A stretch of 64,000 bases of DNA, from contig CANSGN010000010.1 in NCBI GenBank assembly GCA_947646415.1, positions 1,399-65,398 on the forward strand, in the 5' to 3' direction. The notes under the pieces are model-generated. The model did no database searches. It saw only the letters and a program-made list of their open reading frames with translations, and was not told the DNA's origin. Of this stretch, positions 1-8,217 are shown in pieces; within the stretch, counting starts at the first letter, position 1; every line of letters begins with the position of its first letter. The translations under genes and the position numbers were made by a program. This stretch comes from an uncultured Clostridia bacterium (GTDB lineage: Bacteria; Bacillota; Clostridia; Christensenellales; UBA3700).

Positions 1-408
1 CAATTTTTTAATCTTCATAAAAACTCCCTTTCTATATCGATATTTTTAAAATAAATATTCAATATATTTACTATAGCATAATAAATAGTTAATTTCAACC
101 CTCAAAACTGCTGTAATATGTAATAAAGCTATATATTTATATAAAATTAAAGTAAGTTTTTTTATTGTTATTTACATTTATTTGGAAATAATGTAAAATA
201 AAAGTAATAGAAGTTTGATAAGGAAATGAAGTTATGACAATAACAAATTTAAAACAATCTCTACAAACAAATTACGGCAAGCTGAAAAGCGCTACAAACG
301 TTATGATTAATCACACTTACCTTTTTACCACATAAGTTATTGGTAGAAAACAAAAACTATTTACTTTTAAATAGTCATTATTTAATAGTTATAAATCTTT
401 GATTAAAC

Positions 409-443
409 AAAATACGCAAGTTAAAAACTTGCGTATTTTGTTG
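409..443. terminator. Rho-independent-type hairpin (AATACGCAAG / CTTGCGTATT) flanked by an A-run and a T-run
   Basis: A perfect 10-bp stem at 411-420/428-437 is followed by TTTTGTTG and preceded by an A-rich tract. Confidence 0.5.
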
Positions 444-758
444 TACAATTTTTGAAGTTATCCTTCTCCAAAGAAAAAAATTCATTAAGAGTTTTAGTGT
501 ATTTTTGCACCGCAAACTTTTTGCGGCAGCAAAAATACTAACTTTTTACAATCTTACACCGAATTATTTGGTATTTTATATATTATACACCTAATTTTTT
601 GAGTTTGTCAAGTAAAATACCGAATTTTTTGGCATTGTGTAGATAATAATAAAATTATAGCTTTATTTCGATTTTTTTCGTAAAAATAAAATAATTTAAT
701 AACTGAAATAAATCACTAAATATTTCTCAAATTTTATTTTTGTAGAGGGGGTAGCAAT

Positions 759-1100
759 ATGGAGTACAATAACAAGCTAAAAGAATTGAGAATATCCAAA
801 GGTTTTTTCCAAAAAGACATTGCAACTAAAATCGGCGTTGCGACAAACACTTATCAATCTTGGGAGCGAGGAATAACTCAACCCGATATTTCCAATTTGA
901 TAAAACTTAGTAATGTTTATGCCTGCTCTGTCGATTACATTATCGGCAAGGAAACCGAGGAAGGTATGATAATGTTTACTAACAACTTAAGTGAAGATGA
1001 AAATATCTTTATCAATACCGTAAGACAACTTAGTCTAAAAGACAAAGGCATTTTGTTTGACTTGGCTTTGACTATGCTTAAAGCAAAAAATATAAAATAA
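759..1100 (+). CDS. XRE-family helix-turn-helix transcriptional regulator
   Basis: 113-aa ORF. It has an N-terminal HTH_3-like segment (LKELRISKGFFQKDIATKIGVATNTYQSWERG). A purine-rich RBS (AGAGGGGG) lies upstream of the ATG. Confidence 0.8.
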   Translation: MEYNNKLKELRISKGFFQKDIATKIGVATNTYQSWERGITQPDISNLIKLSNVYACSVDYIIGKETEEGMIMFTNNLSEDENIFINTVRQLSLKDKGILFDLALTMLKAKNIK

Positions 1101-1248
1101 TAGTATTTTTAATATCAAGCCTTATATCAACACGCAATTATAAAAAGTTTTAATCAAATTATCGGCTCAAATGCTAAGTTTTTGTAAAATTGCTTTATTT
1201 AATATTGTATTTATGTTATAATATATAAAATAATATAGTAGGTGCATT

Positions 1249-1716
1249 ATGCGAAAGTCAAACAGAGAAATACACGGCTTGGATAAAATAGTTGACATTA
1301 TACAAAACACAAATACAATAAGGTTGGGTATAAATGACTCCCCTTACCCTTATGTTGTGCCGGTTTCTTTTGGTTTTGACGTGCAAGATGACAAACTTTG
1401 TTTTTATTTTCATGGTGCAACCATAGGTAAAAAAGTACAGCTTTTAGATAAAAACCCGTTGGTTTGCGTGGAAGGAGACATTTTTCACCGTTATATGGAT
1501 ACGATAAAATCGGTAACTTGCCTTTACGAAAGTTTTATAGCATACGGCAAATGCACTTTACTGAACGGAAATGATGCTATCCACGGCCTAAAACAAATTT
1601 TAAAGCATTGCAATTATTCCGACCACACCTTTAATACGGATGTTTTACCTATAGTAAATGTATATAAAATAGAGGTAGAAAGCATAACCGCAAAACACAG
1701 GACAAAAGATAATTGA
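1249..1716 (+). CDS. Pyridoxamine 5'-phosphate oxidase-family FMN-binding split-barrel protein (NimA-like)
   Basis: 155-aa ORF. The pattern TIRLGINDSPYPYVVPVSFGF...LCFYFHGATIGKK is typical of the PNPOx-like/Nim family. An RBS (TAGGTG) lies upstream. Confidence 0.65.
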   Translation: MRKSNREIHGLDKIVDIIQNTNTIRLGINDSPYPYVVPVSFGFDVQDDKLCFYFHGATIGKKVQLLDKNPLVCVEGDIFHRYMDTIKSVTCLYESFIAYGKCTLLNGNDAIHGLKQILKHCNYSDHTFNTDVLPIVNVYKIEVESITAKHRTKDN

Positions 1717-1920
1717 TATATAATTAAAAATATATAAAATATGATATATAAATATTTTTACAATTATATATCTGCAATGCAGTTTGCTAATCTCTATTTG
1801 TTGTAGATAAACGTAAAATATAATTTGTTAAAAATAAAAAGAAAATTTTAAAATAACACTTACCTATTTACTTGACATTACCGTAAATTTTGTATATACT
1901 TTTTAGGTAACCGAATAAAT

Positions 1921-1997
1921 GGACGATTAGCTCAGCTGGATAGAGCGTTGCGCTACGGACGCAAAGGTCAGGGGTTCGAATCCCTTATCGTTCACCA
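1921..1997 (+). tRNA. tRNA-Arg (anticodon ACG), CCA encoded
   Basis: Hand-folded cloverleaf. Acceptor GGACGAT/ATCGTTC. D arm GCTC-AGCTGGATA-GAGC. Anticodon stem TTGCG/CGCAA with loop CTACGGA. T arm AGGGG-TTCGAAT-CCCTT. Discriminator A followed by CCA. Confidence 0.93.
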
Positions 1998-2010
1998 TAA
2001 GGGAATAAGA

Positions 2011-2049
2011 CGAACTCTTTATTTAGTAAGGAGTTCGGTTTATTTTTTA
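2011..2049 (+). terminator. Rho-independent terminator after tRNA-Arg
   Basis: Stem CGAACTC (2011-2017) / GAGTTCG (2031-2037), followed by GTTTATTTTTT. Confidence 0.7.
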
Positions 2050-2061
2050 TGAATGATTGTT

Positions 2062-2196
2062 ATGGAGTAAAATCAAGACAGTGGAGAAAAAACGGAAAAA
2101 ACTTATTATGTTAGGTCTGGTTGGATGGTTTTTTCAAATGGAAAATTAAAAAGTAATACATTAATAGCAGGATGGTGGTTAAATGAAGTTGTTTGA
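2062..2196 (+). pseudogene. 5'-truncated remnant of the cassette's larger gene (last ~38 codons only)
   Basis: It translates to SGEKTEKTYYVRSGWMVFSNGKLKSNTLIAGWWLNEVV*, against the C-termini of 2709-3326 and 3833-4450. An in-frame TAA lies just upstream and there is no start codon. A 1-nt length difference occurs at the homology boundary. Confidence 0.85.
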
Positions 2197-2551
2197 TAAG
2201 GTTAAAGTGTTGGTTTCAAAGCCAGAATATGAAAAATGGGAAATTTTTAAAGGAATGGTAGGGACAATTATTGATGCAGAAATACGTTTTAGGGCATTTC
2301 AAGTTATCTTTACTGACCCTACACCAGTAACATCAGAAAATTGGGATTATATTGATTTAAAAGATGATATTTTGTGCTATATTCATGTAAAAGATTTGGA
2401 AGTTGTTGAAGAAAGCGATTGCACAGATGAGTATTTGTTAGAAAATTTACCAAATCAAGATATAAGATGGTTTTGTAAGGTGGAGGATGGTTTTATAATC
2501 AACTTGCTTGGCGAAAAATTGAACAAAATACCTTACGATTATGACAGTTAA
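2183..2551 (+). CDS. Cassette small protein, copy A (immunity/antitoxin-like; DUF4926-like N-terminus), orphan
   Basis: 122-aa ORF. Its ATG lies inside the ...AAATGAAGTTGTTTGA overlap with the remnant upstream. It is a paralog of 3313-3675 and 4437-4799. Confidence 0.8.
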   Translation: MKLFDKVKVLVSKPEYEKWEIFKGMVGTIIDAEIRFRAFQVIFTDPTPVTSENWDYIDLKDDILCYIHVKDLEVVEESDCTDEYLLENLPNQDIRWFCKVEDGFIINLLGEKLNKIPYDYDS

Positions 2552-2708
2552 TTTATCAAGAATTTAATTTGATAATTAATTTTATTTTTAACAAGCTTTA
2601 AAATAACATTTTTTTATACAATAATGCAAAAGAATTTGTCATAAAACCATTTAAAAATAATTTTTATGCCTTACAATATAGTTAAAAAATATAATTGTGA
2701 GGTGGAAA

Positions 2709-3326
2709 ATGTTAGCAGAGTGGACAAGCAAATGGATTAAAGTTTTTGACAAATTAAACGATGTTGTCATTGATGATTTTGATTATGAACATGGTATACA
2801 TGGTCTAATAACAACTAAACATTGTGTAAAATGTATTGCAGCAAATCAGTGTTGGTTTGTAGATGAAAAAAATAAAAAACCTGAACAAATGGAATATAGC
2901 TTTGAAGAGATATTAAAGGATACAAAGAATAAAAGAGGGTTGTACCATTATAATTGTCATTGCAAAGAAATAAACATTCCTACCCCCAAAGAATCTGAAA
3001 TAAAATTAATTATTCCCGAAGGAAAAATTGGATGGTTGTTTAAAGATAAAGAGGGATTGGTAAAAAAAGCGTTGGGTTATGAGCCAAATGATGACTTCTT
3101 AGAATATTTTAAAAAACAGGTTTTGAAAAGTTATTGCCAAGGTAAATATTACATATTAGGCATTGATGAACATGGTGTGGCAATAAGTGTTAAAGTAGAA
3201 ATCAACGGCAGTGGAGAAAAAACGGGGAAAACTTATTATGTTAGGTCAGGCTGGATGGTTTTTTCAAATGGAAAATTAAAAAATAATACACTAATAGCAG
3301 GATGGTGGTTAAATGAAGTTGTTTGA
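2709..3326 (+). CDS. Cassette large protein, copy 1 (MuF-like CxxC...HxNCxC knuckle plus a variable C-terminal putative toxin domain)
   Basis: The ORF track starts at GTG 2697. ATG 2709 is preferred because GAGGTGG sits 4-10 nt upstream. Motifs present: HCVKCIAANQCWF and LYHYNCHC. The stop overlaps the next gene's start by 14 nt. Confidence 0.8.
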   Translation: MLAEWTSKWIKVFDKLNDVVIDDFDYEHGIHGLITTKHCVKCIAANQCWFVDEKNKKPEQMEYSFEEILKDTKNKRGLYHYNCHCKEINIPTPKESEIKLIIPEGKIGWLFKDKEGLVKKALGYEPNDDFLEYFKKQVLKSYCQGKYYILGIDEHGVAISVKVEINGSGEKTGKTYYVRSGWMVFSNGKLKNNTLIAGWWLNEVV

Positions 3327-3675
3327 TAAGGTTAAAGTTTTAGAGTCAAGACAAAGATATAGTGAAAGAGAAATATATAAAGGAATGATTGGCACAATAA
3401 TAGATGCTGAAATTAGAGGAAGGACATTTAATGTGATTTTTACTGACCCGACTCCATTTACCGAGGAAACTATGTATTCAATCAAACCCGATATTATTTG
3501 TGCAATTTACATTAAAGACTTGGAAGTTGTAGAAGAGAGCGATTGCACAGATGATTATTTATTGATAAATTTACCAAAACAAAATCCAAAATGGTTTTGT
3601 AAAGTAGAAGATGGATATATAATCAACTTGCTTGGCGAAAAATTGAATAAGATTCCTTATGATTATGACAGTTAA
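3313..3675 (+). CDS. Cassette small protein, copy B (immunity/antitoxin-like)
   Basis: 120-aa ORF. It is translationally coupled by a 14-nt overlap. The KLFDKVKVL...KGM.GTIIDAEI...VIFTDP...KDLEVVE pattern resembles DUF4926. Confidence 0.8.
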   Translation: MKLFDKVKVLESRQRYSEREIYKGMIGTIIDAEIRGRTFNVIFTDPTPFTEETMYSIKPDIICAIYIKDLEVVEESDCTDDYLLINLPKQNPKWFCKVEDGYIINLLGEKLNKIPYDYDS

Positions 3676-3832
3676 TTTATCAAGAATTTAATTTGATAAT
3701 TAATTTTATTTTTAACAAGCTTTAAAATAACATTTTTTTATACAATAATGCAAAAGAATTTGTCATAAAACCATTTAAAAATAATTTTTATGCCTTACAA
3801 TATAGTTAAAAAATATAATTGTGAGGTGGAAA

Positions 3833-4450
3833 ATGTTAGCAGAGTGGACAAGCAAATGGATTAAAGTTTTTGACAAATTAAACGATGTTGTCATTGATGA
3901 TTTTGATTATGAACATGGTATACATGGTCTAATAACAACTAAACATTGTGTAAAATGTATTGCAGCAAATCAGTGTTGGTTTGTGGATGAAAAAAATAAA
4001 AAACCTGAACGAATGGAATATAGCTTTGAAGAGATATTAAAGGATACAAAGAATAAAAGAGGATTATATCATTATAATTGTCATTGCAAAGAAATAAACA
4101 TTCCTGCTCCCAAAGAATCTGAAATAGAATTAATTATTCCCGAAGGAAAAATTGGATGGTTGTTTAATGATAAAGAGGGATTGGTAAAAAAAGCTTTGGG
4201 TTATGAACCAAACGAAGAATTTTTAGAATATTTTAAAAAACAAGTTTTGAAGAGTTATTGTAAAGGACAATATTATATATTAAATATCAATAAGTATGGT
4301 GTATCCATAAGTATTAAAGTTAAAGTTGAAGGTAGTGGAGAAAAAACGGGGAAAACTTATTATGTTAGGTCAGGCTGGATGGTTTTTTCAAATGGAAAAT
4401 TAAAGAGTAATACATTAATAGCAGGATGGTGGTTAAATGAAGTTGTTTGA
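3833..4450 (+). CDS. Cassette large protein, copy 2
   Basis: The ORF track starts at 3821, with ATG 3833 behind GAGGTGG. The first ~100 aa are nearly identical to copy 1. A divergent patch lies at aa ~148-169. Confidence 0.8.
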   Translation: MLAEWTSKWIKVFDKLNDVVIDDFDYEHGIHGLITTKHCVKCIAANQCWFVDEKNKKPERMEYSFEEILKDTKNKRGLYHYNCHCKEINIPAPKESEIELIIPEGKIGWLFNDKEGLVKKALGYEPNEEFLEYFKKQVLKSYCKGQYYILNINKYGVSISIKVKVEGSGEKTGKTYYVRSGWMVFSNGKLKSNTLIAGWWLNEVV

Positions 4451-4799
4451 CAAAGTTAAAGTTTTAGTTTCAAAGCCAGAATATGAAGAGCAAGAAGTTT
4501 ATAAAGGAATGGTAGGGACAATAATTGATGCAGAAATTAGAGGAAGGTCGTTTCATGTGATTTTTACTGACCCCACACCATTTACTGAAGAAACGATGTA
4601 TTCAATTAAACCAGATATTTTATGCGTTATAGATATAAAAGACTTGGAAGTTGTTGAAGAGAGCGATTGCACAGATGATTATTTATTGATAAATTTACCA
4701 AAACAAAATCCAAAATGGTTTTGTAAAGTAGAAGATGGATATATAATCAACTTGCTTGGCGAAAAATTGAATAAGATTCCTTACGATTACGATAGTTGA
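4437..4799 (+). CDS. Cassette small protein, copy C (immunity/antitoxin-like, mosaic of A and B)
   Basis: 120-aa ORF with a 14-nt overlap with 3833-4450. Confidence 0.8.
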   Translation: MKLFDKVKVLVSKPEYEEQEVYKGMVGTIIDAEIRGRSFHVIFTDPTPFTEETMYSIKPDILCVIDIKDLEVVEESDCTDDYLLINLPKQNPKWFCKVEDGYIINLLGEKLNKIPYDYDS

Positions 4800-4906
4800 T
4801 TTATTAGGAATTTCTATTATCTGAAGTTGTCGCCAAGCAGCCCGTAGGGATATTTGACAGCAACTAATGCTAATTCAAACTATTTGTAAAATTTGAAAAT
4901 CTAATG

Positions 4907-4942
4907 GTGCTATGGTCTTAAATGACTATGGCACTATTTTTT
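4907..4942 (+). terminator. Rho-independent terminator closing the cassette array
   Basis: Stem GTGCTATGGTC (4907-4917) / GACTATGGCAC (4924-4934), followed by TATTTTTT. Confidence 0.75.
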
Positions 4943-5231
4943 ATGTGTTTTAATCTAGATTTTTTATGTGTTAAAAACCAATTTAGCCTAAATTGTGCCA
5001 AAATTTGACATTTGTTTTTTGCTATTGCCAATTTTTGGTAATAGTTTTATAAAATTAGTAATCATTATCACTTTTTACATAAATTTTTCTTTTCATATTA
5101 TAATGCTATATGATTTGAATAATTAAACGTATAATAATAACTCTAAGTTTTTTAAACTAAACAAAAGGTATAAAATAAAGTAAAAAGTAGCAAAAATATG
5201 TGATAAAAATTTTACATAGATTTTTACTTGA

Positions 5232-5290
5232 ACACAACATATTGTGGTCAAATTGCCAAAATCTCAAAAAATGACCACAATATATTGATT
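5232..5290 (+). promoter_or_regulatory. Two NrdR-box-like palindromes upstream of nrdD
   Basis: ACACAACATATTGTGG (5232-5247) and CCACAATATATTGATT (5275-5290), compared with the recalled consensus acaCwAtATaTwGtgt. Their centres are ~43 bp apart. Box 2 abuts the -35. Confidence 0.7.
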
Positions 5291-5297
5291 TTTCCTC

Positions 5298-5326
5298 TTG
5301 ACAACGAATATAATTTGTTGTATACT
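5298..5326 (+). promoter_or_regulatory. Sigma-70/SigA-type promoter of nrdDG
   Basis: TTGACA (5298-5303), a 17-nt spacer, then TATACT (5321-5326). RBS AAGGAG lies before the ATG at 5370. Confidence 0.7.
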
Positions 5327-5369
5327 GAATGAGCAATATCAGTAAACCCAAAGAAGAAGGAGAAATTTT

Positions 5370-7679
5370 ATGATTAAAAGCATTATTAAAAGAGATGGCA
5401 GAAAAGTTCCATTTAATTTGCAAAAAATTGCCGATGCTATTTTTAAAGCAGCAGCATCTGTTGGAGGAAGCGACCATGATACCGCATTAGAGCTTGCAGT
5501 TGAGGCTTGCGAGTATTTGGAAAGCCAAGGCAACACTACCCCAACCGTGGAGGAAATCCAAAACGCAGTTGAAAAGACATTAATTGAAAAGGGACACGCA
5601 CAAACTGCCAAAAACTATATTCTTTACAGAGCAAACCGTACAAGAGCAAGAGAAATGAAAACTTCTCTTATGGAAATCTATAAAGATTTGACTTTTAAAG
5701 ATGCAAAAGATAATGATATAAAAAGAGAGAACGCTAACATTGACGGCGACACTGCAATGGGTACAATGTTAAAGTATGGTAGCGAAGGTGCAAAACAATT
5801 TAACAAATTGTTTGTATTGCGTCCTGAACATGCAAAAGCTCATGAAGAGGGAGACATTCATATTCATGACCTAGACTTTTTGACATTGACTGAAACTTGC
5901 TGTCAAATAGACCTAATCAAATTGTTTAAAGGCGGTTTTTGTACCGGACACGGCTTTTTGAGAGAGCCTAACGACATAGCATCCTACTCCGCACTTGCAG
6001 CAATAGCTATTCAATCCAACCAAAATGACCAACACGGCGGACAAAGTATTCCTAACTTTGAATACGCAATGGCTATCGGTGTAGCAAAATCTTATAAGAA
6101 AATTTACAAGAAAAATCTTATCAAGGCTTTGGATATTTACGAAATCGAAAACGCTGAGGAAGTTGCTAACAATATAACAAATTCTCTTGCAGAAAAGGAT
6201 ATCGTTCCTAAGCTAGAGAAAGACGATTATATGATTGAAGAGGCAAAAGAGCTTGCAAAAATCGGTATTAAAGACGAAAGTATCAAAAAAATTCAAAAGT
6301 TCACAAAGAAATATTCGGAGCAAGAAATTGACCGTGCAACATACCAAGCAATGGAGGCTTTTGTTCACAATTTGAACACAATGCACTCTAGAGCAGGCGC
6401 ACAAATTCCGTTTAGCAGTATCAACTACGGTACAGATACCACCCCTGAAGGCAGACTTGTTATTAAAAACATTATGCTAGCAACAGATGCAGGTTTGGGT
6501 AACGGCGAAACAGCTATCTTCCCTATCCACATATTTAAAGTAAAAGAGGGTATCAACTACAATAAACAAGACCCTAACTACGATTTGTTTAAACTTGCTA
6601 TCAGAGTATCTGCAAAAAGGTTATTCCCTAACTTCTCGTTTATTGATGCTCCATTTAACCTACAATACTACAAAGAGGGCGACTACAGGACTGAAATAGC
6701 TTACATGGGTTGCCGTACAAGGGTTGCAGGTAACGTTTATGACAAGGATAGAGAGATTGTTACTCAAAGAGGTAACTTATCATTCACATCAATCAACTTG
6801 CCTAGACTTGGTATTCTTGCAAAAGGCGATTTAAACAAATTCTATGAAATGCTTGACGAAAAACTTAATTTGGTTTCCGACCAATTAATGGACAGATACA
6901 AAATTCAAGCTAAAAAGAGAGTTAAAAACTATCCGTTCCTAATGGGTCAAGGTGTATGGCTAGACAGCGATAAGCTAGACTACGAAGATGAAATCGGCGA
7001 GATTTTAAAACATGGTACATTGTCTATCGGATTTATCGGTCTTGCAGAGTGCTTGGTAGCACTTACAGGCAAACACCACGGAGAGAGTGAGGAATGTCAA
7101 AAACTAGGTTTGGAAATCATCAAACACATGAGAGATTTTACTGAAAAACTTTGCGAGGAAACTCACTTTAACTACTCTGTTATCGCAACTCCTGCAGAAG
7201 GACTATCCGGCAGATTTGTAAGAATCGATGCTAAAAAGTTCGGTAAAATAAAAGGCATTACAGATAGAGAATATTATACAAACTCTTTCCACGTTCCTGT
7301 TTATTACAATATTGCAGCTTTGGATAAAATCAAAATCGAAGCACCTTATCACGCTTTGACAAACGGCGGACATATCAGCTATATCGAGCTTGACGGCGAC
7401 CCTCTAAAGAACTTGGATGCTTTTGAAGCTTGCGTACGTTGCATGAAAGAGGCCGGTATAGGATATGGCTCAATCAACCACCCAATAGATCGTGACCCTG
7501 TTTGCGGATATAATGGAATAATCGATAATGTTTGTCCTAAATGTGGCAGAAAAGAGGGCGACGGCAAACAAAACTTTGAGAGAATCCGCAGAATTACAGG
7601 ATATTTGGTAGGTACTGTTGATAGATTTAACAATGCAAAACGTGCCGAAGTAAACGACAGAGTAAAACACCATGTGTAA
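5370..7679 (+). CDS. nrdD: Anaerobic ribonucleoside-triphosphate reductase (class III RNR)
   Basis: 769 aa. It has an N-terminal ATP-cone, a C-terminal Zn ribbon (CPKCG) and the glycyl-radical motif RRITGYLVG. Confidence 0.95.
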   Translation: MIKSIIKRDGRKVPFNLQKIADAIFKAAASVGGSDHDTALELAVEACEYLESQGNTTPTVEEIQNAVEKTLIEKGHAQTAKNYILYRANRTRAREMKTSLMEIYKDLTFKDAKDNDIKRENANIDGDTAMGTMLKYGSEGAKQFNKLFVLRPEHAKAHEEGDIHIHDLDFLTLTETCCQIDLIKLFKGGFCTGHGFLREPNDIASYSALAAIAIQSNQNDQHGGQSIPNFEYAMAIGVAKSYKKIYKKNLIKALDIYEIENAEEVANNITNSLAEKDIVPKLEKDDYMIEEAKELAKIGIKDESIKKIQKFTKKYSEQEIDRATYQAMEAFVHNLNTMHSRAGAQIPFSSINYGTDTTPEGRLVIKNIMLATDAGLGNGETAIFPIHIFKVKEGINYNKQDPNYDLFKLAIRVSAKRLFPNFSFIDAPFNLQYYKEGDYRTEIAYMGCRTRVAGNVYDKDREIVTQRGNLSFTSINLPRLGILAKGDLNKFYEMLDEKLNLVSDQLMDRYKIQAKKRVKNYPFLMGQGVWLDSDKLDYEDEIGEILKHGTLSIGFIGLAECLVALTGKHHGESEECQKLGLEIIKHMRDFTEKLCEETHFNYSVIATPAEGLSGRFVRIDAKKFGKIKGITDREYYTNSFHVPVYYNIAALDKIKIEAPYHALTNGGHISYIELDGDPLKNLDAFEACVRCMKEAGIGYGSINHPIDRDPVCGYNGIIDNVCPKCGRKEGDGKQNFERIRRITGYLVGTVDRFNNAKRAEVNDRVKHHV

Positions 7680-8160
7680 AATAAGAATTGCAGGCTTAGT
7701 CAACGACTCTATTGTAGACGGCCCGGGAATGAGACTTACCGTCTTTTGCCAAGGCTGTCCGCATAACTGCAAAGGCTGTCATAACAAACATACCCACGAT
7801 TTTAAAGGCGGATATGATATGGACATTGACGAAATTGTTGAAAAAGCCAAAAAAAATAAAATACTTAGCGGAGTAACTTTTAGCGGTGGCGAGCCAATGT
7901 GCCAACCAAAAGCTTTTTTACAGCTTGCAAAAAAAATAAAAGCCGAAACCGACTTAAACATAATTTGCTACACAGGTTACACACTTGAAGAGCTTGAGCA
8001 AATGAACAATGCAGATATAAATGAACTGCTTGATATTTGTGATTGGTTGATAGACGGCAGATTTTGCGAAGAACTAAAGGACTTGACTCTTCCTTTCCGC
8101 GGAAGTTCCAATCAGCGCATAATAGAGCTTAAAAACAATACTATTGATTGGACAAGATAA
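7672..8160 (+). CDS. nrdG: Anaerobic RNR activating protein (radical SAM)
   Basis: 162 aa. The cluster motif CQGCPHNCKGCHN is present. An 8-nt overlap with nrdD (ATGTGTAA) links the two genes. Confidence 0.9.
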   Translation: MCKIRIAGLVNDSIVDGPGMRLTVFCQGCPHNCKGCHNKHTHDFKGGYDMDIDEIVEKAKKNKILSGVTFSGGEPMCQPKAFLQLAKKIKAETDLNIICYTGYTLEELEQMNNADINELLDICDWLIDGRFCEELKDLTLPFRGSSNQRIIELKNNTIDWTR

Positions 8161-8183
8161 TAAAGCAGTATATTTAATTTAAC

Positions 8184-8217
8184 AAAAAGAGATTTGATAA
8201 TTCAAATCTCTTTTTTA
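8184..8217. terminator. Bidirectional terminator between nrdG (+) and the LRR lipoprotein gene (-)
   Basis: Stem AGAGATTTGA (8188-8197) / TCAAATCTCT (8202-8211), flanked by A5 and T6. Confidence 0.75.

Follow-up and report, generated by a model that had tools for sequence, protein, structure and literature searches.

We find that a sharply bounded patch in the large gene of a tandem array, located within a 64,000-nt stretch of DNA from an uncultured Clostridia bacterium (hereafter, the window), is very probably an old discrete allele that has been spread by recombination, and not a burst of new amino-acid changes. The patch would be an anciently diverged allelic cassette encoding the β1-β2 hairpin of a predicted RNase toxin of the DUF6883/BECR-Tox3 type, set in an array of paired toxin and DUF4926-type immunity genes downstream of a tRNA-Arg gene. 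The DNA around it is held near-identical by homologous recombination and gene conversion, which act among array units and also from strain to strain. This shared DNA takes in the intergenic region, the first two-thirds of the toxin gene together with its final 38 codons, and the second half of the small gene. The cassette itself, 75 nt long and ~32% diverged, is passed on as an intact block. As a whole, we consider this explanation, an anciently diverged recombining cassette combined with type-specific recognition by the immunity protein, to be probable. Taken separately, the mosaic origin of the patch is highly likely from the alignments, and a role in immunity specificity is put forward tentatively.

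The array lies on the forward strand. Its left anchor is tRNA-Arg(ACG) (1921..1997; ARAGORN, Rfam tRNA 63.9 bits), and nrdD (5370-7679) and nrdG (7672-8160) lie 3' of it; an HTH regulator and a pyridoxamine-oxidase-like gene are also among its neighbours. A consensus scan placed terminator-like hairpins 3' of the tRNA (2011..2037) and at the close of the array, upstream of nrdD (4903..4938). Within these limits comes first a 5'-truncated remnant of the large (toxin) gene (2080..2196), which keeps about the last 38 codons (tblastn query residues 168-205 at 95%, and alignment). Homology begins within the patch region, and the same remnant is found in syntenic loci L001, L079-83, L102-105 and L113. 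The orphan small gene that overlaps its end (copy 0, 122 aa, 2183..2551) is predicted to encode an immunity protein, with a Pfam DUF4926 match (E 0.004) below threshold. Copy 0 is itself a mosaic: its loop, residues 11-22, differs only by E20 for G20 (11 of 12 residues shared) from that of the small gene that follows the remnant in L001/L080, and the rest of the protein, residues 23-122, resembles the L079 small gene that follows the 198-aa large gene.

Two complete units follow. A 145-nt intergenic repeat (2552..2696), 100% identical to 3676-3820, is contained in a 309-nt run (2552-2860) that is identical between units 1 and 2. Unit 1 then comprises large gene copy 1 (2709..3326, 205 aa, identical to WP_279155610.1) and small gene copy 1 (3313..3675, 120 aa, a predicted immunity protein); unit 2 comprises large gene copy 2 (3833..4450, 205 aa, P0001) and small gene copy 2 (4437..4799, 120 aa, loop type VSKPEYEEQEVY). 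Copy 1 of the large gene probably starts at ATG 2709, which is preceded by AGGTGG, and not at GTG 2697; homologs of the protein are 198-211 aa long, and their alignment begins at the second Met of the GTG-start reading. Array content at the tRNA-Arg/nrdD locus varies between strains, and several loci have two to four additional small genes in a row as well as truncated large genes. An embedded RNA was considered and rejected.

The two large genes were compared as GTG-start frames (copy 1, 2697-3326; copy 2, 3821-4450), which run colinear, 1124 nt apart. They differ at 44 of 630 positions, with 24 of these differences falling within 75 nt at 3137-3209 (4261-4333 in copy 2), inside the aligned patches at 3135..3212 (haplotype type 1, QGKYYILGIDEHGVAISVKVEIN) and 4259..4336 (type 2, KGQYYILNINKYGVSISIKVKVE). 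A preliminary description of this DNA had reported such a sharp patch and had argued against uniform drift, and both points hold: the densest 75-nt window contains 24 of all 44 differences, whereas permuted data average 10.2 and never exceed 20 (100,000 permutations, p ≤ 1e-5), and divergence along the gene is clustered, not even. The amino-acid strings it quoted are correct (11 differences among 26 residues), and its estimate that about one third of patch positions differ agrees with the 31-32% that we find. However, the further statement that almost all changes are non-synonymous is mistaken, because the 18 changed codons comprise 11 replacements and 7 silent changes, and 12 of the 24 patch substitutions are at third codon positions. 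By the Nei-Gojobori method, dN in the patch is 0.26 and dS is 2.85, a saturated value that is also noisy since it is estimated from 25 codons only. The resulting dN/dS of about 0.1 gives no support to strong diversifying selection on the patch in the sense of dN > dS. As for the handful of flank substitutions described earlier, this is accurate for the 3' flank (three differences in 114-117 nt) but not for the whole 5' flank, which is not uniform: there are no differences up to 2860 and then 17 in 2861-3128 (6%, dS 0.28). Flank dS is thus 0 in codons 1-50, 0.28 in codons 51-142 and 0.09 in codons 168-205. The nucleotide distance of 32% between the two patches is on a par with the deepest splits that the subfamily shows, compared with 0-6% in the flanks. 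Given saturated patch dS beside low flank dS, and with half of the substitutions at third positions, the patch reads as old DNA within recently shared flanks.

In public data, the patch is found as discrete haplotypes (types 1, 2, 3 and more), with type 1 on 15 contigs, type 2 on 6+40+11+9 contigs and type 3 on at least 25. Copies 1 and 2 are reproduced in the same order on the independent contigs L082 and L098. Segmental exchange, which had been proposed from the sharp boundaries, is borne out by the saturated patch dS against a flank dS of 0-0.28 and by two recombinants. In the syntenic genome L001, 12 of 17 informative flank sites resemble copy 1, but from 3137 onward 26 of 27 sites resemble copy 2 (Fisher 3e-6), and a recombination breakpoint check places the maximum chi-square breakpoint at 3128|3137 (permutation p 1e-4). 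Metagenome contig L120 is copy-2-like at all 17 flank sites to 3128 and copy-1-like at all 24 patch sites (Fisher p 7e-12). The two are reciprocal recombinants, and both switch copy within the same 8 nt, 3129-3136, which border the patch on its 5' side. Since the L120 junction shares only 8 nt, a k-mer assembly chimera is impossible there. Further breakpoints were located at 2945|2982, 2984|3003 and 3209|3281, and five cluster members are mosaic proteins (P0176, P0184, P0196, P0214 and P0222). The observed junctions fall in conserved DNA at the cassette edges, which is why the cassette boundaries stay sharp. Because the type 1 and type 2 haplotypes are unchanged in other genomes and on opposite flanks (L001 and L120), they must be older than this array. 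Two points weigh against the mosaic origin: among related alleles, no donor for the type 1 patch was found, the nearest being at 26.7% nucleotide distance, and the patch dS is noisy. Recombination of discrete blocks is an ordinary route by which toxin-immunity loci diversify, and the long-term upkeep of discrete patch types is compatible with balancing selection.

Directly 3' of the patch is a conserved island (3210..3343) formed by the large-gene 3' end and the first 10 small-gene codons, including the 14-nt overlap of the two genes. Its first 71 nt (3210-3280) are identical between copies. Across the island, dS is 0.1-0.17 among types 1, 2 and 3 and 0.8-1.8 against distant alleles; the latter values rule out nucleotide-level constraint as the cause of its conservation. 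A second block of old divergence then begins in the small gene (3344..3531), where codons 11-22, the RT-like loop, have dN 0.50 and dS 1.57, and codons 46-73 have dN 0.05 and saturated dS. The block is followed directly by 128 identical nt (3532-3659).

The large protein has an N-terminal Cys/His-rich domain and a C-terminal DUF6883/BECR-Tox3-like domain, a predicted RNase toxin. Its AlphaFold2 model (pLDDT 87.8) has helices at residues 106-113, 115-121 and 128-143 and strands at 147-153, 156-166, 175-186 and 189-204. This topology of helices and then β1-β4 fits the colicin-like BECR arrangement (pre-α, α and β1-β4) given in the available text of a recent preprint (bioRxiv 10.64898/2026.08.28.747851). 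In the model, the patch corresponds to the hairpin of β1 (147-153) and β2 (156-166) in the toxin core. Most of the 11 replacements alter charge or polarity at the tip of the hairpin or at sites interleaved with conserved hydrophobic residues, a pattern that suggests a solvent-exposed face for the varied positions.

Kinship with DUF6883 emerges at the level of profiles. On the window copies, Pfam PF21814 (DUF6883) scores 16.7 and 15.5 bits (E 0.009-0.02, residues 121-189), below its 27-bit gathering score, and it matches at E ≤ 1 in only 7 of 44 family members. The family HMM (alignment A1) matches the C-termini of Rhs-repeat, Tox-PAAR-like and PG_binding_1 proteins at E 1e-9 to 1e-13. Pfam calls DUF6883 in the matched C-termini of all 10 long proteins scanned (P0324, P0330, P0347, P0359, P0364, P0365, P0376, P0327, P0309 and P0305), above threshold in eight. 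By profile-level homology, then, the C-terminal domain is related to DUF6883. Its invariant residues are K106, K114, G123, Y147, G156, G167, K191, N193 and T194, among which K106, K114, K191, N193 and T194 (pre-α and β3-β4) are likely catalytic. Some BECR RNases have no histidine, and a missing histidine leaves RNase activity possible. Across the family alignment, no histidine is invariant in the toxin domain; active-site histidines in pre-α and β4 are reported for colicin-like BECR proteins generally in the available text of the preprint (bioRxiv 10.64898/2026.08.28.747851).

Other searches with the large protein returned little. Foldseek of its model against the PDB gave nothing significant (best E 0.16, NTF2-like or designed sheets), and a profile search of PDB sequences gave no match. 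Against viral models, Foldseek returned 'Minor capsid protein' entries (E 5.7e-4, prob 0.99; E 0.1, prob 0.96), a likeness at fold level only. Phage_Mu_F (PF04233) was absent at E ≤ 1 from the window proteins and at E ≤ 0.01 from 10 relatives of ~200 aa, and tblastn found no match in 50,697 phage records or in a plasmid collection. Pfam, NCBIfam and PHROG annotation showed no secretion or trafficking domain within these 205 aa. Nothing matched in NCBIfam or PADLOC, and the PHROGs matches had weak E-values and were confined to families without annotation.

The small protein (copy 1) is modelled as an SH3-like barrel with a small acidic C-terminal domain (AlphaFold2 pLDDT 95.9), and its Foldseek matches are KOW/SH3/PsaE structures (prob ~1, E 0.02-0.1). 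No DNA-binding domain was detected in it. Its N-terminus matches PF16277 (DUF4926) weakly (E 0.003-0.095; 12.6-17.2 bits versus a threshold of 29.1), and the homologs P0067 and P0072 have a precomputed PF16277 match. The small gene lies directly 3' of the large gene in most of 78 genome loci, and we predict that it encodes a DUF4926-type immunity protein. Toxins of the DUF6883/'BECR-Tox3' kind with downstream DUF4926 proteins are described in the available text of bioRxiv 10.64898/2026.08.28.747851.

Under the proposed mechanism, the SH3-like immunity protein would most likely recognise the cassette as a specificity exosite through its variable RT-like loop. Each toxin type would have a partner of its own that neutralises it, and frequency-dependent selection would preserve the distinct types. 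The patch is a plausible partner-binding interface. On long, well-covered contigs, four patch types each adjoin a small-protein loop type of their own, namely ESRQRYSEREIY beside type 1, VSKPEYEEQEVY beside type 2, VSKEKYEKCEVF beside type 3 and ADAEEYAKEEVY beside the E type, and two further patch types, P5 and P6, have one in common. Note that the patch and the small-gene variable region are only ~135 nt apart, and their association may be linkage alone.

The strongest competing account, which we judge somewhat unlikely, is that the patch is a tolerant surface hairpin that diverged by lineage and acquired sharp edges through short conversion tracts, with no role in specificity. Consistent with this, the patch is not the most variable segment family-wide, with a mean column entropy of 1.74 bits versus 1.80 for residues 123-142 and 1.98 for residues 56-76, and breakpoints are scattered along the large gene. 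Both covariation tests were also negative. The net charges of types 1, 2 and 3 look compensatory (-1/+3/+2 in the patch; -1/-5/-2 in small-protein residues 11-68), but charge complementarity was dropped as evidence, since across 66 non-redundant pairs rho was -0.14 to -0.24 and not significant. MI-APC between the large and small proteins (effective sequences 46) placed patch columns in 16 of the top 100 pairs versus ~13 expected, which is no enrichment; the top pairs joined L103/L191/L193 to S30/S31. Patch types P5 and P6 differ at six residues, yet they have one common small-gene type, and the type 1 patch adjoins other small-gene types in L086, L093-95 and L120. All of these contigs are ≤2.5 kb at ≤5x coverage, and the mismatches may reflect either true recombination or swaps at assembly bubbles through the 71- and 128-nt identical runs. 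Against a purely neutral origin, near-identical backgrounds carry at least three deeply diverged patch types, all at appreciable frequencies and two of them within one array, and this is easier to explain if selection maintains the types. The one-to-one pairing of types 1, 2, 3 and E with loop type in long contigs also argues for a specificity role, as does dN equal to or above dS in small-protein codons 11-22 in several comparisons.

We regard it as improbable that the cassette alters the choice of RNA substrate, or allows escape from a third-party inhibitor, instead of affecting binding of the immunity protein. In colicin E5/D and RelE, the sheet face of BECR RNases contributes to RNA binding. 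The same is stated of the BECR sheet face in the available text of bioRxiv 10.64898/2026.08.28.747851, and L120 and L093-95, if real, would be cases of the patch moving apart from the small gene. However, the likely catalytic invariant residues in pre-α and β3-β4 are far in sequence from the hairpin. Even less credible is a recent tandem duplication followed by strong positive selection limited to the patch. Amino-acid divergence there is ~10-fold above that of the flanks (dN 0.26 versus 0.02-0.03), and many of the changes alter charge, but saturated dS (~2.9), the silent changes in 7 of 18 codons and the half share of third-position substitutions, together with the same two haplotypes recurring unchanged on opposite flank backgrounds in L001 and L120, largely refute it. 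Targeted hypermutation or an assembly artefact can be set aside almost entirely: sharp edges and a nearby repeat give a superficial likeness to a VR/TR pair, but a diversity-generating retroelement target is ruled out by a spectrum that lacks adenine specificity (G>A 7, C>T 6, A>G 3, C>A 2, A>C 2, others) and by the lack of a third, template-like patch copy within the 64-kb window, and the haplotypes are discrete and stable across samples, with copies and order repeated on L082 and L098.

The proposed recombining specificity cassette has partial counterparts in known systems. The E-group nuclease colicins E2/E7/E8/E9, which are DNases, are bound by Im2/7/8/9 at an immunity-protein exosite through dual recognition, and Riley reportedly described clustered substitutions in the colicin immunity region. 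As in those colicins, most of the difference between near-alike enzymatic toxin domains is concentrated in a short stretch of surface, the adjoining small immunity gene has a matching variable segment beside a conserved one, synonymous and non-synonymous changes are both raised in the region, and recombination is implicated. Unlike them, the window proteins are of other folds and families, a BECR-type RNase domain with an SH3-like partner, and their genes sit in chromosomal tandem arrays without translocation or receptor domains or a lysis gene; binding between patch and partner is our inference. In ParD-ParE systems, a few specificity residues separate insulated paralogous toxin-antitoxin pairs. 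The window likewise has two co-resident paralogous pairs of small cytoplasmic proteins with overlapping genes, differing almost only in short segments of each partner. However, here the toxin gene comes first, the small protein has no detected DNA-binding domain, PADLOC gives no match and the domain family is otherwise tied to secreted polymorphic toxins.

The general features of polymorphic toxin-immunity systems are found in this family: a domain shared with secreted toxins, a downstream immunity gene (14-nt overlap), orphan immunity genes and toxin remnants. Similarity to polymorphic toxins with orphan toxin-tip/immunity modules (CDI, Rhs and the MuF toxins) extends to a domain common to Rhs and PAAR proteins, an immunity gene immediately 3', extra immunity genes with 5'-truncated toxin remnants, and one strain-variable locus with recombination through conserved sequence. 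The differences are that the 205-aa protein has no recognisable trafficking or secretion domain or signal, that the swapped unit is a 25-codon piece within the toxin domain and not a whole tip, and that the remnant precedes the full copies and retains only the post-patch segment. With DUF6883/BECR-Tox3 toxins, as far as they are presented in the available text of bioRxiv 10.64898/2026.08.28.747851 (which cites Iyer et al. 2017 on PBECR proteins), the window proteins share profile-level kinship, the pre-α, α and four-strand topology and a conserved downstream gene that may be of the DUF4926 kind. They differ in falling below Pfam thresholds and in having no full Phage_Mu_F domain, phage context or conserved toxin-domain histidine, and a tandem multi-copy array with intradomain cassettes does not appear in that text. 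MuF toxins (PMC5576092) differ in their N-terminal Phage_Mu_F domain and in the prophage head-morphogenesis module, neither of which accompanies the window genes.

Even if the patch proves neutral, it is a clean example of a sharp difference between paralogs that is old DNA between recombination junctions and not positive selection. A bolder reading, which we offer as speculation, is that the cassette is a self-contained, swappable specificity module, that short-tract conversion, as in L120, re-pairs or un-pairs toxin and immunity, and that the array generates new specificities in gut Clostridia. If true, the array would do within a single domain what orphan-module switching does in CDI and Rhs systems. 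If the cassette does determine specificity, the locus would offer a compact natural system, with proteins of 205 and 120 aa, at least three discrete types and natural chimeras, that could be used to map how an SH3-like immunity protein recognises a BECR-type RNase toxin in DUF6883/DUF4926 pairs. It would also show how arrays and gene conversion make and keep incompatibility types among strains of uncultured mouse-gut Clostridia.

The sharply bounded divergent patch in the large gene is genuine, and is very probably an old allelic cassette delimited by recombination junctions. Counted from the GTG start initially chosen, large genes 1 (2709-3326) and 2 (3833-4450) show 44 differences over 630 positions, and 24 of them fall within 3137-3209. 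Random placement of the 44 differences (100,000 trials) yielded a maximum of 20 per 75-nt window (mean 10.2), so the patch is real and sharp, as the preliminary description had it. The flanks were also described as near-identical. This is accurate for 2552-2860, an identical 309-nt run that includes the intergenic repeat, and for the last 117 nt of the large gene (three differences), but not for 2861-3128, which holds 17. Nor are almost all patch changes nonsynonymous: 7 changed codons are silent and 11 alter the amino acid, with 12 of the 24 substitutions at third codon positions.

Nei-Gojobori estimates between the two copies gave dN 0.26 and dS 2.85 (saturated) in the patch (codons 143-167), compared with 0 and 0 in codons 1-50, 0.027 and 0.28 in codons 51-142, and 0.011 and 0.09 in codons 168-205. 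Judged by synonymous sites, the patch thus appears far older than its flanks. Recent duplication followed by adaptive amino acid change would have kept dS low, and this reading fails because patch dS is high. Strong diversifying selection in the dN>dS sense, suggested earlier, is likewise not supported for the patch, with saturated dS against a dN of 0.26.

Segmental exchange, the other process proposed, is borne out by reciprocal recombinants. L001, a syntenic contig from a Christensenellaceae MAG, shows 91-94% identity and lacks one full unit relative to the window. It agrees with copy 1 at 12 of the 17 informative positions within 2861-3128, and with copy 2 at 26 of the 27 that begin at 3137. 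The maximum chi-square breakpoint lies between 3128 and 3137 (permutation P = 1 × 10−4). The metagenome contig L120 is its reciprocal, with a copy-2-like flank (17/17) and a copy-1-like patch (24/24; Fisher P = 7 × 10−12). Because the L120 junction (3129-3136) spans only 8 identical bases common to copies 1 and 2, it is not a k-mer assembler product. Other contigs have further breakpoints at 2945-2982, 2984-3003, and 3209-3281. Discrete patch types are present among protein clusters at 90% identity: type 1 (window copy 1) is QGKYYILGIDEHGVAISVKVEIN, type 2 (copy 2) is KGQYYILNINKYGVSISIKVKVE, and type 3 is KGQYYILSINNYGVAISIKVKIE. These clusters also hold several more distant patch types, as well as mosaics with exchanged N- or C-terminal parts. 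No type-1/type-2 recombinants with a junction inside the patch were seen. Homologous exchange within the patch is expected to be rare at the 32% divergence between copies, which would explain mechanically why the edges are sharp. This distance is as large as the deepest in the subfamily, and a search of related alleles found no close donor of the type-1 patch, the nearest being 26.7% away. The tandem array of predicted toxin and immunity genes very probably undergoes concerted evolution together with exchange between strains.

By the same age argument, the small gene appears to contain a second old block (copy 1 versus copy 2: dN 0.50 and dS 1.57 in codons 11-22; dN 0.05 and saturated dS in codons 46-73), directly followed by 128 identical nt. 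The two old blocks are separated by a conserved island (3210-3343; copy 2, 4334-4467), in which a 71-nt run (3210-3280) is identical in both copies. Nucleotide-level constraint on the island is ruled out, because its low dS (0.1-0.17) is confined to types 1, 2, and 3 and rises to 0.8-1.8 against more distant alleles. Type 3 has a 5′ flank dS of ~0.9-1.2, yet shares the low island dS. The island therefore appears to be recently shared DNA, and resembles a favored tract for crossover or conversion.

The array is a head-to-tail repeat with a period of 1124 nt, downstream of tRNA-Arg(ACG) (1921-1997) and a terminator-like hairpin (2011-2037). A 5′-truncated large-gene remnant (2080-2196; last ~38 codons) and small gene 0 (2183-2551; 122 aa) precede large genes 1 and 2, which are paired with small genes 1 (3313-3675) and 2 (4437-4799); adjacent large and small genes share 14 nt. 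A second terminator-like hairpin (4903-4938) is followed by nrdD and nrdG. The GTG initially chosen as the start (2697) probably lies 12 nt upstream of the true one, because homologs (198-211 aa) align from the second Met, which AGGTGG precedes. The G+C content of the array (2040-4800) is 28.6% versus 35.4% for the whole window, consistent with acquired DNA. The tRNA-Arg gene directly adjoins this array of predicted tRNA-targeting-type RNase toxins, and the BECR RNase colicin D has tRNA-Arg as its cleavage substrate. The adjacency is most likely coincidence, because tRNA genes are common insertion sites of islands.

Between tRNA-Arg and nrdD, array content differs between strains. Writing rem for the truncated remnant and L and S for large and small genes, we found rem-S(b), L2-S2 in L001, L114, and L119; rem-S(a), L2-S2 in L113; rem-S1, L(E)-S(c), L1-S1 in L079; ...S1, L1-S1, L2-S2 in L082; and rem-S1′, L(P5)-S(b), L2-S2 in L112. 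The window's arrangement recurs on independent contigs L082 and L098 and is thus not an assembly artefact. The first unit is always a 5′-truncated remnant with an intact small gene (window 2080-2551; L001, L079-83, L102-105, L113). Remnant homology starts inside the patch region, and the small gene that follows varies by strain (three types seen), small gene 0 being a mosaic of two other types. The type-3 pair (L088-L092) has upstream neighbors as in window 1-8200 (GH16, pyridoxamine-oxidase-like gene) and downstream rpsR-ssb-rpsF in place of nrdD-nrdG, which locates the array at a synteny breakpoint; L088 has a rolling-circle Rep-like gene upstream. At several related loci, the large gene is a frameshifted pseudogene split over two or three frames beside an intact small gene (L016 6001-6612, L014 1461-2050, L069-L077), which suggests toxin decay with immunity retained. 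Distant relatives (L056, L059, L060, L036, L039) have one large gene, then an orphan immunity-like array of three or four tandem small genes. Copy 1 (2709-3323; protein P0171) exactly matches RefSeq WP_279155610.1, which carries the name Thomasclavelia cocleata; the syntenic MAG contigs are assigned to Christensenellaceae/Clostridia, and a close allele to 'Bacilli'. Such conflicting labels point to mis-binning, contamination, or horizontal transfer.

The large-protein family is small (47 clusters at 90% identity, each either without a name or annotated as 'hypothetical') and found only in uncultured gut Clostridia/Christensenellaceae-type MAGs. Single sequences match Pfam DUF6883 below threshold. 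A family profile search of a 1.8-billion-protein library reached 369 proteins; in ten long distant matches scanned, the matched region was the C-terminal domain, with Pfam DUF6883 in 10/10 (above threshold in 8/10). There it follows RHS repeats (2022 aa), a Tox-PAAR-like domain, or a peptidoglycan-binding domain, which is a polymorphic-toxin architecture. A 2026 preprint places DUF6883 in the colicin-like BECR RNase group ('BECR-Tox3'), describes a conserved downstream DUF4926 gene as the likely immunity protein, and reports frequent DUF6883 fusions to Phage_Mu_F domains (bioRxiv 10.64898/2026.08.28.747851). The AF2 model of the large protein (pLDDT 87.8) has helices at 106-143 and then four strands, a predicted topology that matches the BECR-Tox3 description; the patch comprises strands beta1 (147-153) and beta2 (156-166). 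The N-terminal half has invariant H38, C39, C42, C48, C83, and H84 and a fold-level resemblance to phage 'minor capsid protein' models. No Phage_Mu_F sequence match was found in window proteins or the ~200-aa relatives scanned, and no phage context was found for the large gene.

The small protein is modelled (AF2 pLDDT 95.9) as an SH3-like barrel with a small acidic C-terminal domain. In the model, its variable residues 11-22 make up the loop that connects strand 1 to strand 2, which corresponds to the RT loop of SH3 domains. Several pairwise comparisons give a dN at or above dS in this RT-like loop (window 3343-3378), for example 0.93/0.46 and 1.06/0.47, which, over 12 codons only, may hint at positive selection more than any toxin-patch signal does. 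Together with the pattern of replacements and the pairing of types, this would make the patch a candidate partner interface. Most replacements alter polarity or charge and lie at the tip of the hairpin (151, 153-155) or at even-numbered beta2 positions (158, 164, 166), interleaved with conserved hydrophobic residues; the two changes at odd positions exchange V and I. This periodicity, read from residues rather than coordinates, suggests an exposed face of the hairpin. In every long, well-covered contig, each of types 1, 2, 3, and E has a small-protein loop type of its own downstream, a pairing that linkage alone could explain because ~135 nt separates the two variable blocks. A type-1 patch precedes non-type-1 small genes in L086, L093-95, and L120 (contigs ≤2.5 kb, coverage ≤5×), with switch points in the 71- and 128-nt identical runs; these mismatches may be real or assembler branch swaps. 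P5 and P6 patches have one small-gene type in common. Net charge of patch and small protein showed no correlation across 66 non-redundant pairs, and mutual information between the proteins did not favor patch columns (effective number of sequences, 46). The top inter-protein pairs link large-protein residues 103, 183, 191, and 193 (pre-alpha/beta4 region, with invariant K191 and N193) to small-protein residues 30-31 (loop after strand 2, IIDAEIR). On weak statistics at this effective n, they may show the position in which the small protein masks the active site.

Diversification through recombination is likewise known from polymorphic toxin loci and from nuclease colicins with their immunity proteins. 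Particular to this locus are a stand-alone DUF6883-type predicted toxin with an SH3-like partner, an intradomain unit of exchange of 25 codons, and the natural occurrence of reciprocal chimeras. The hairpin may determine immunity specificity.
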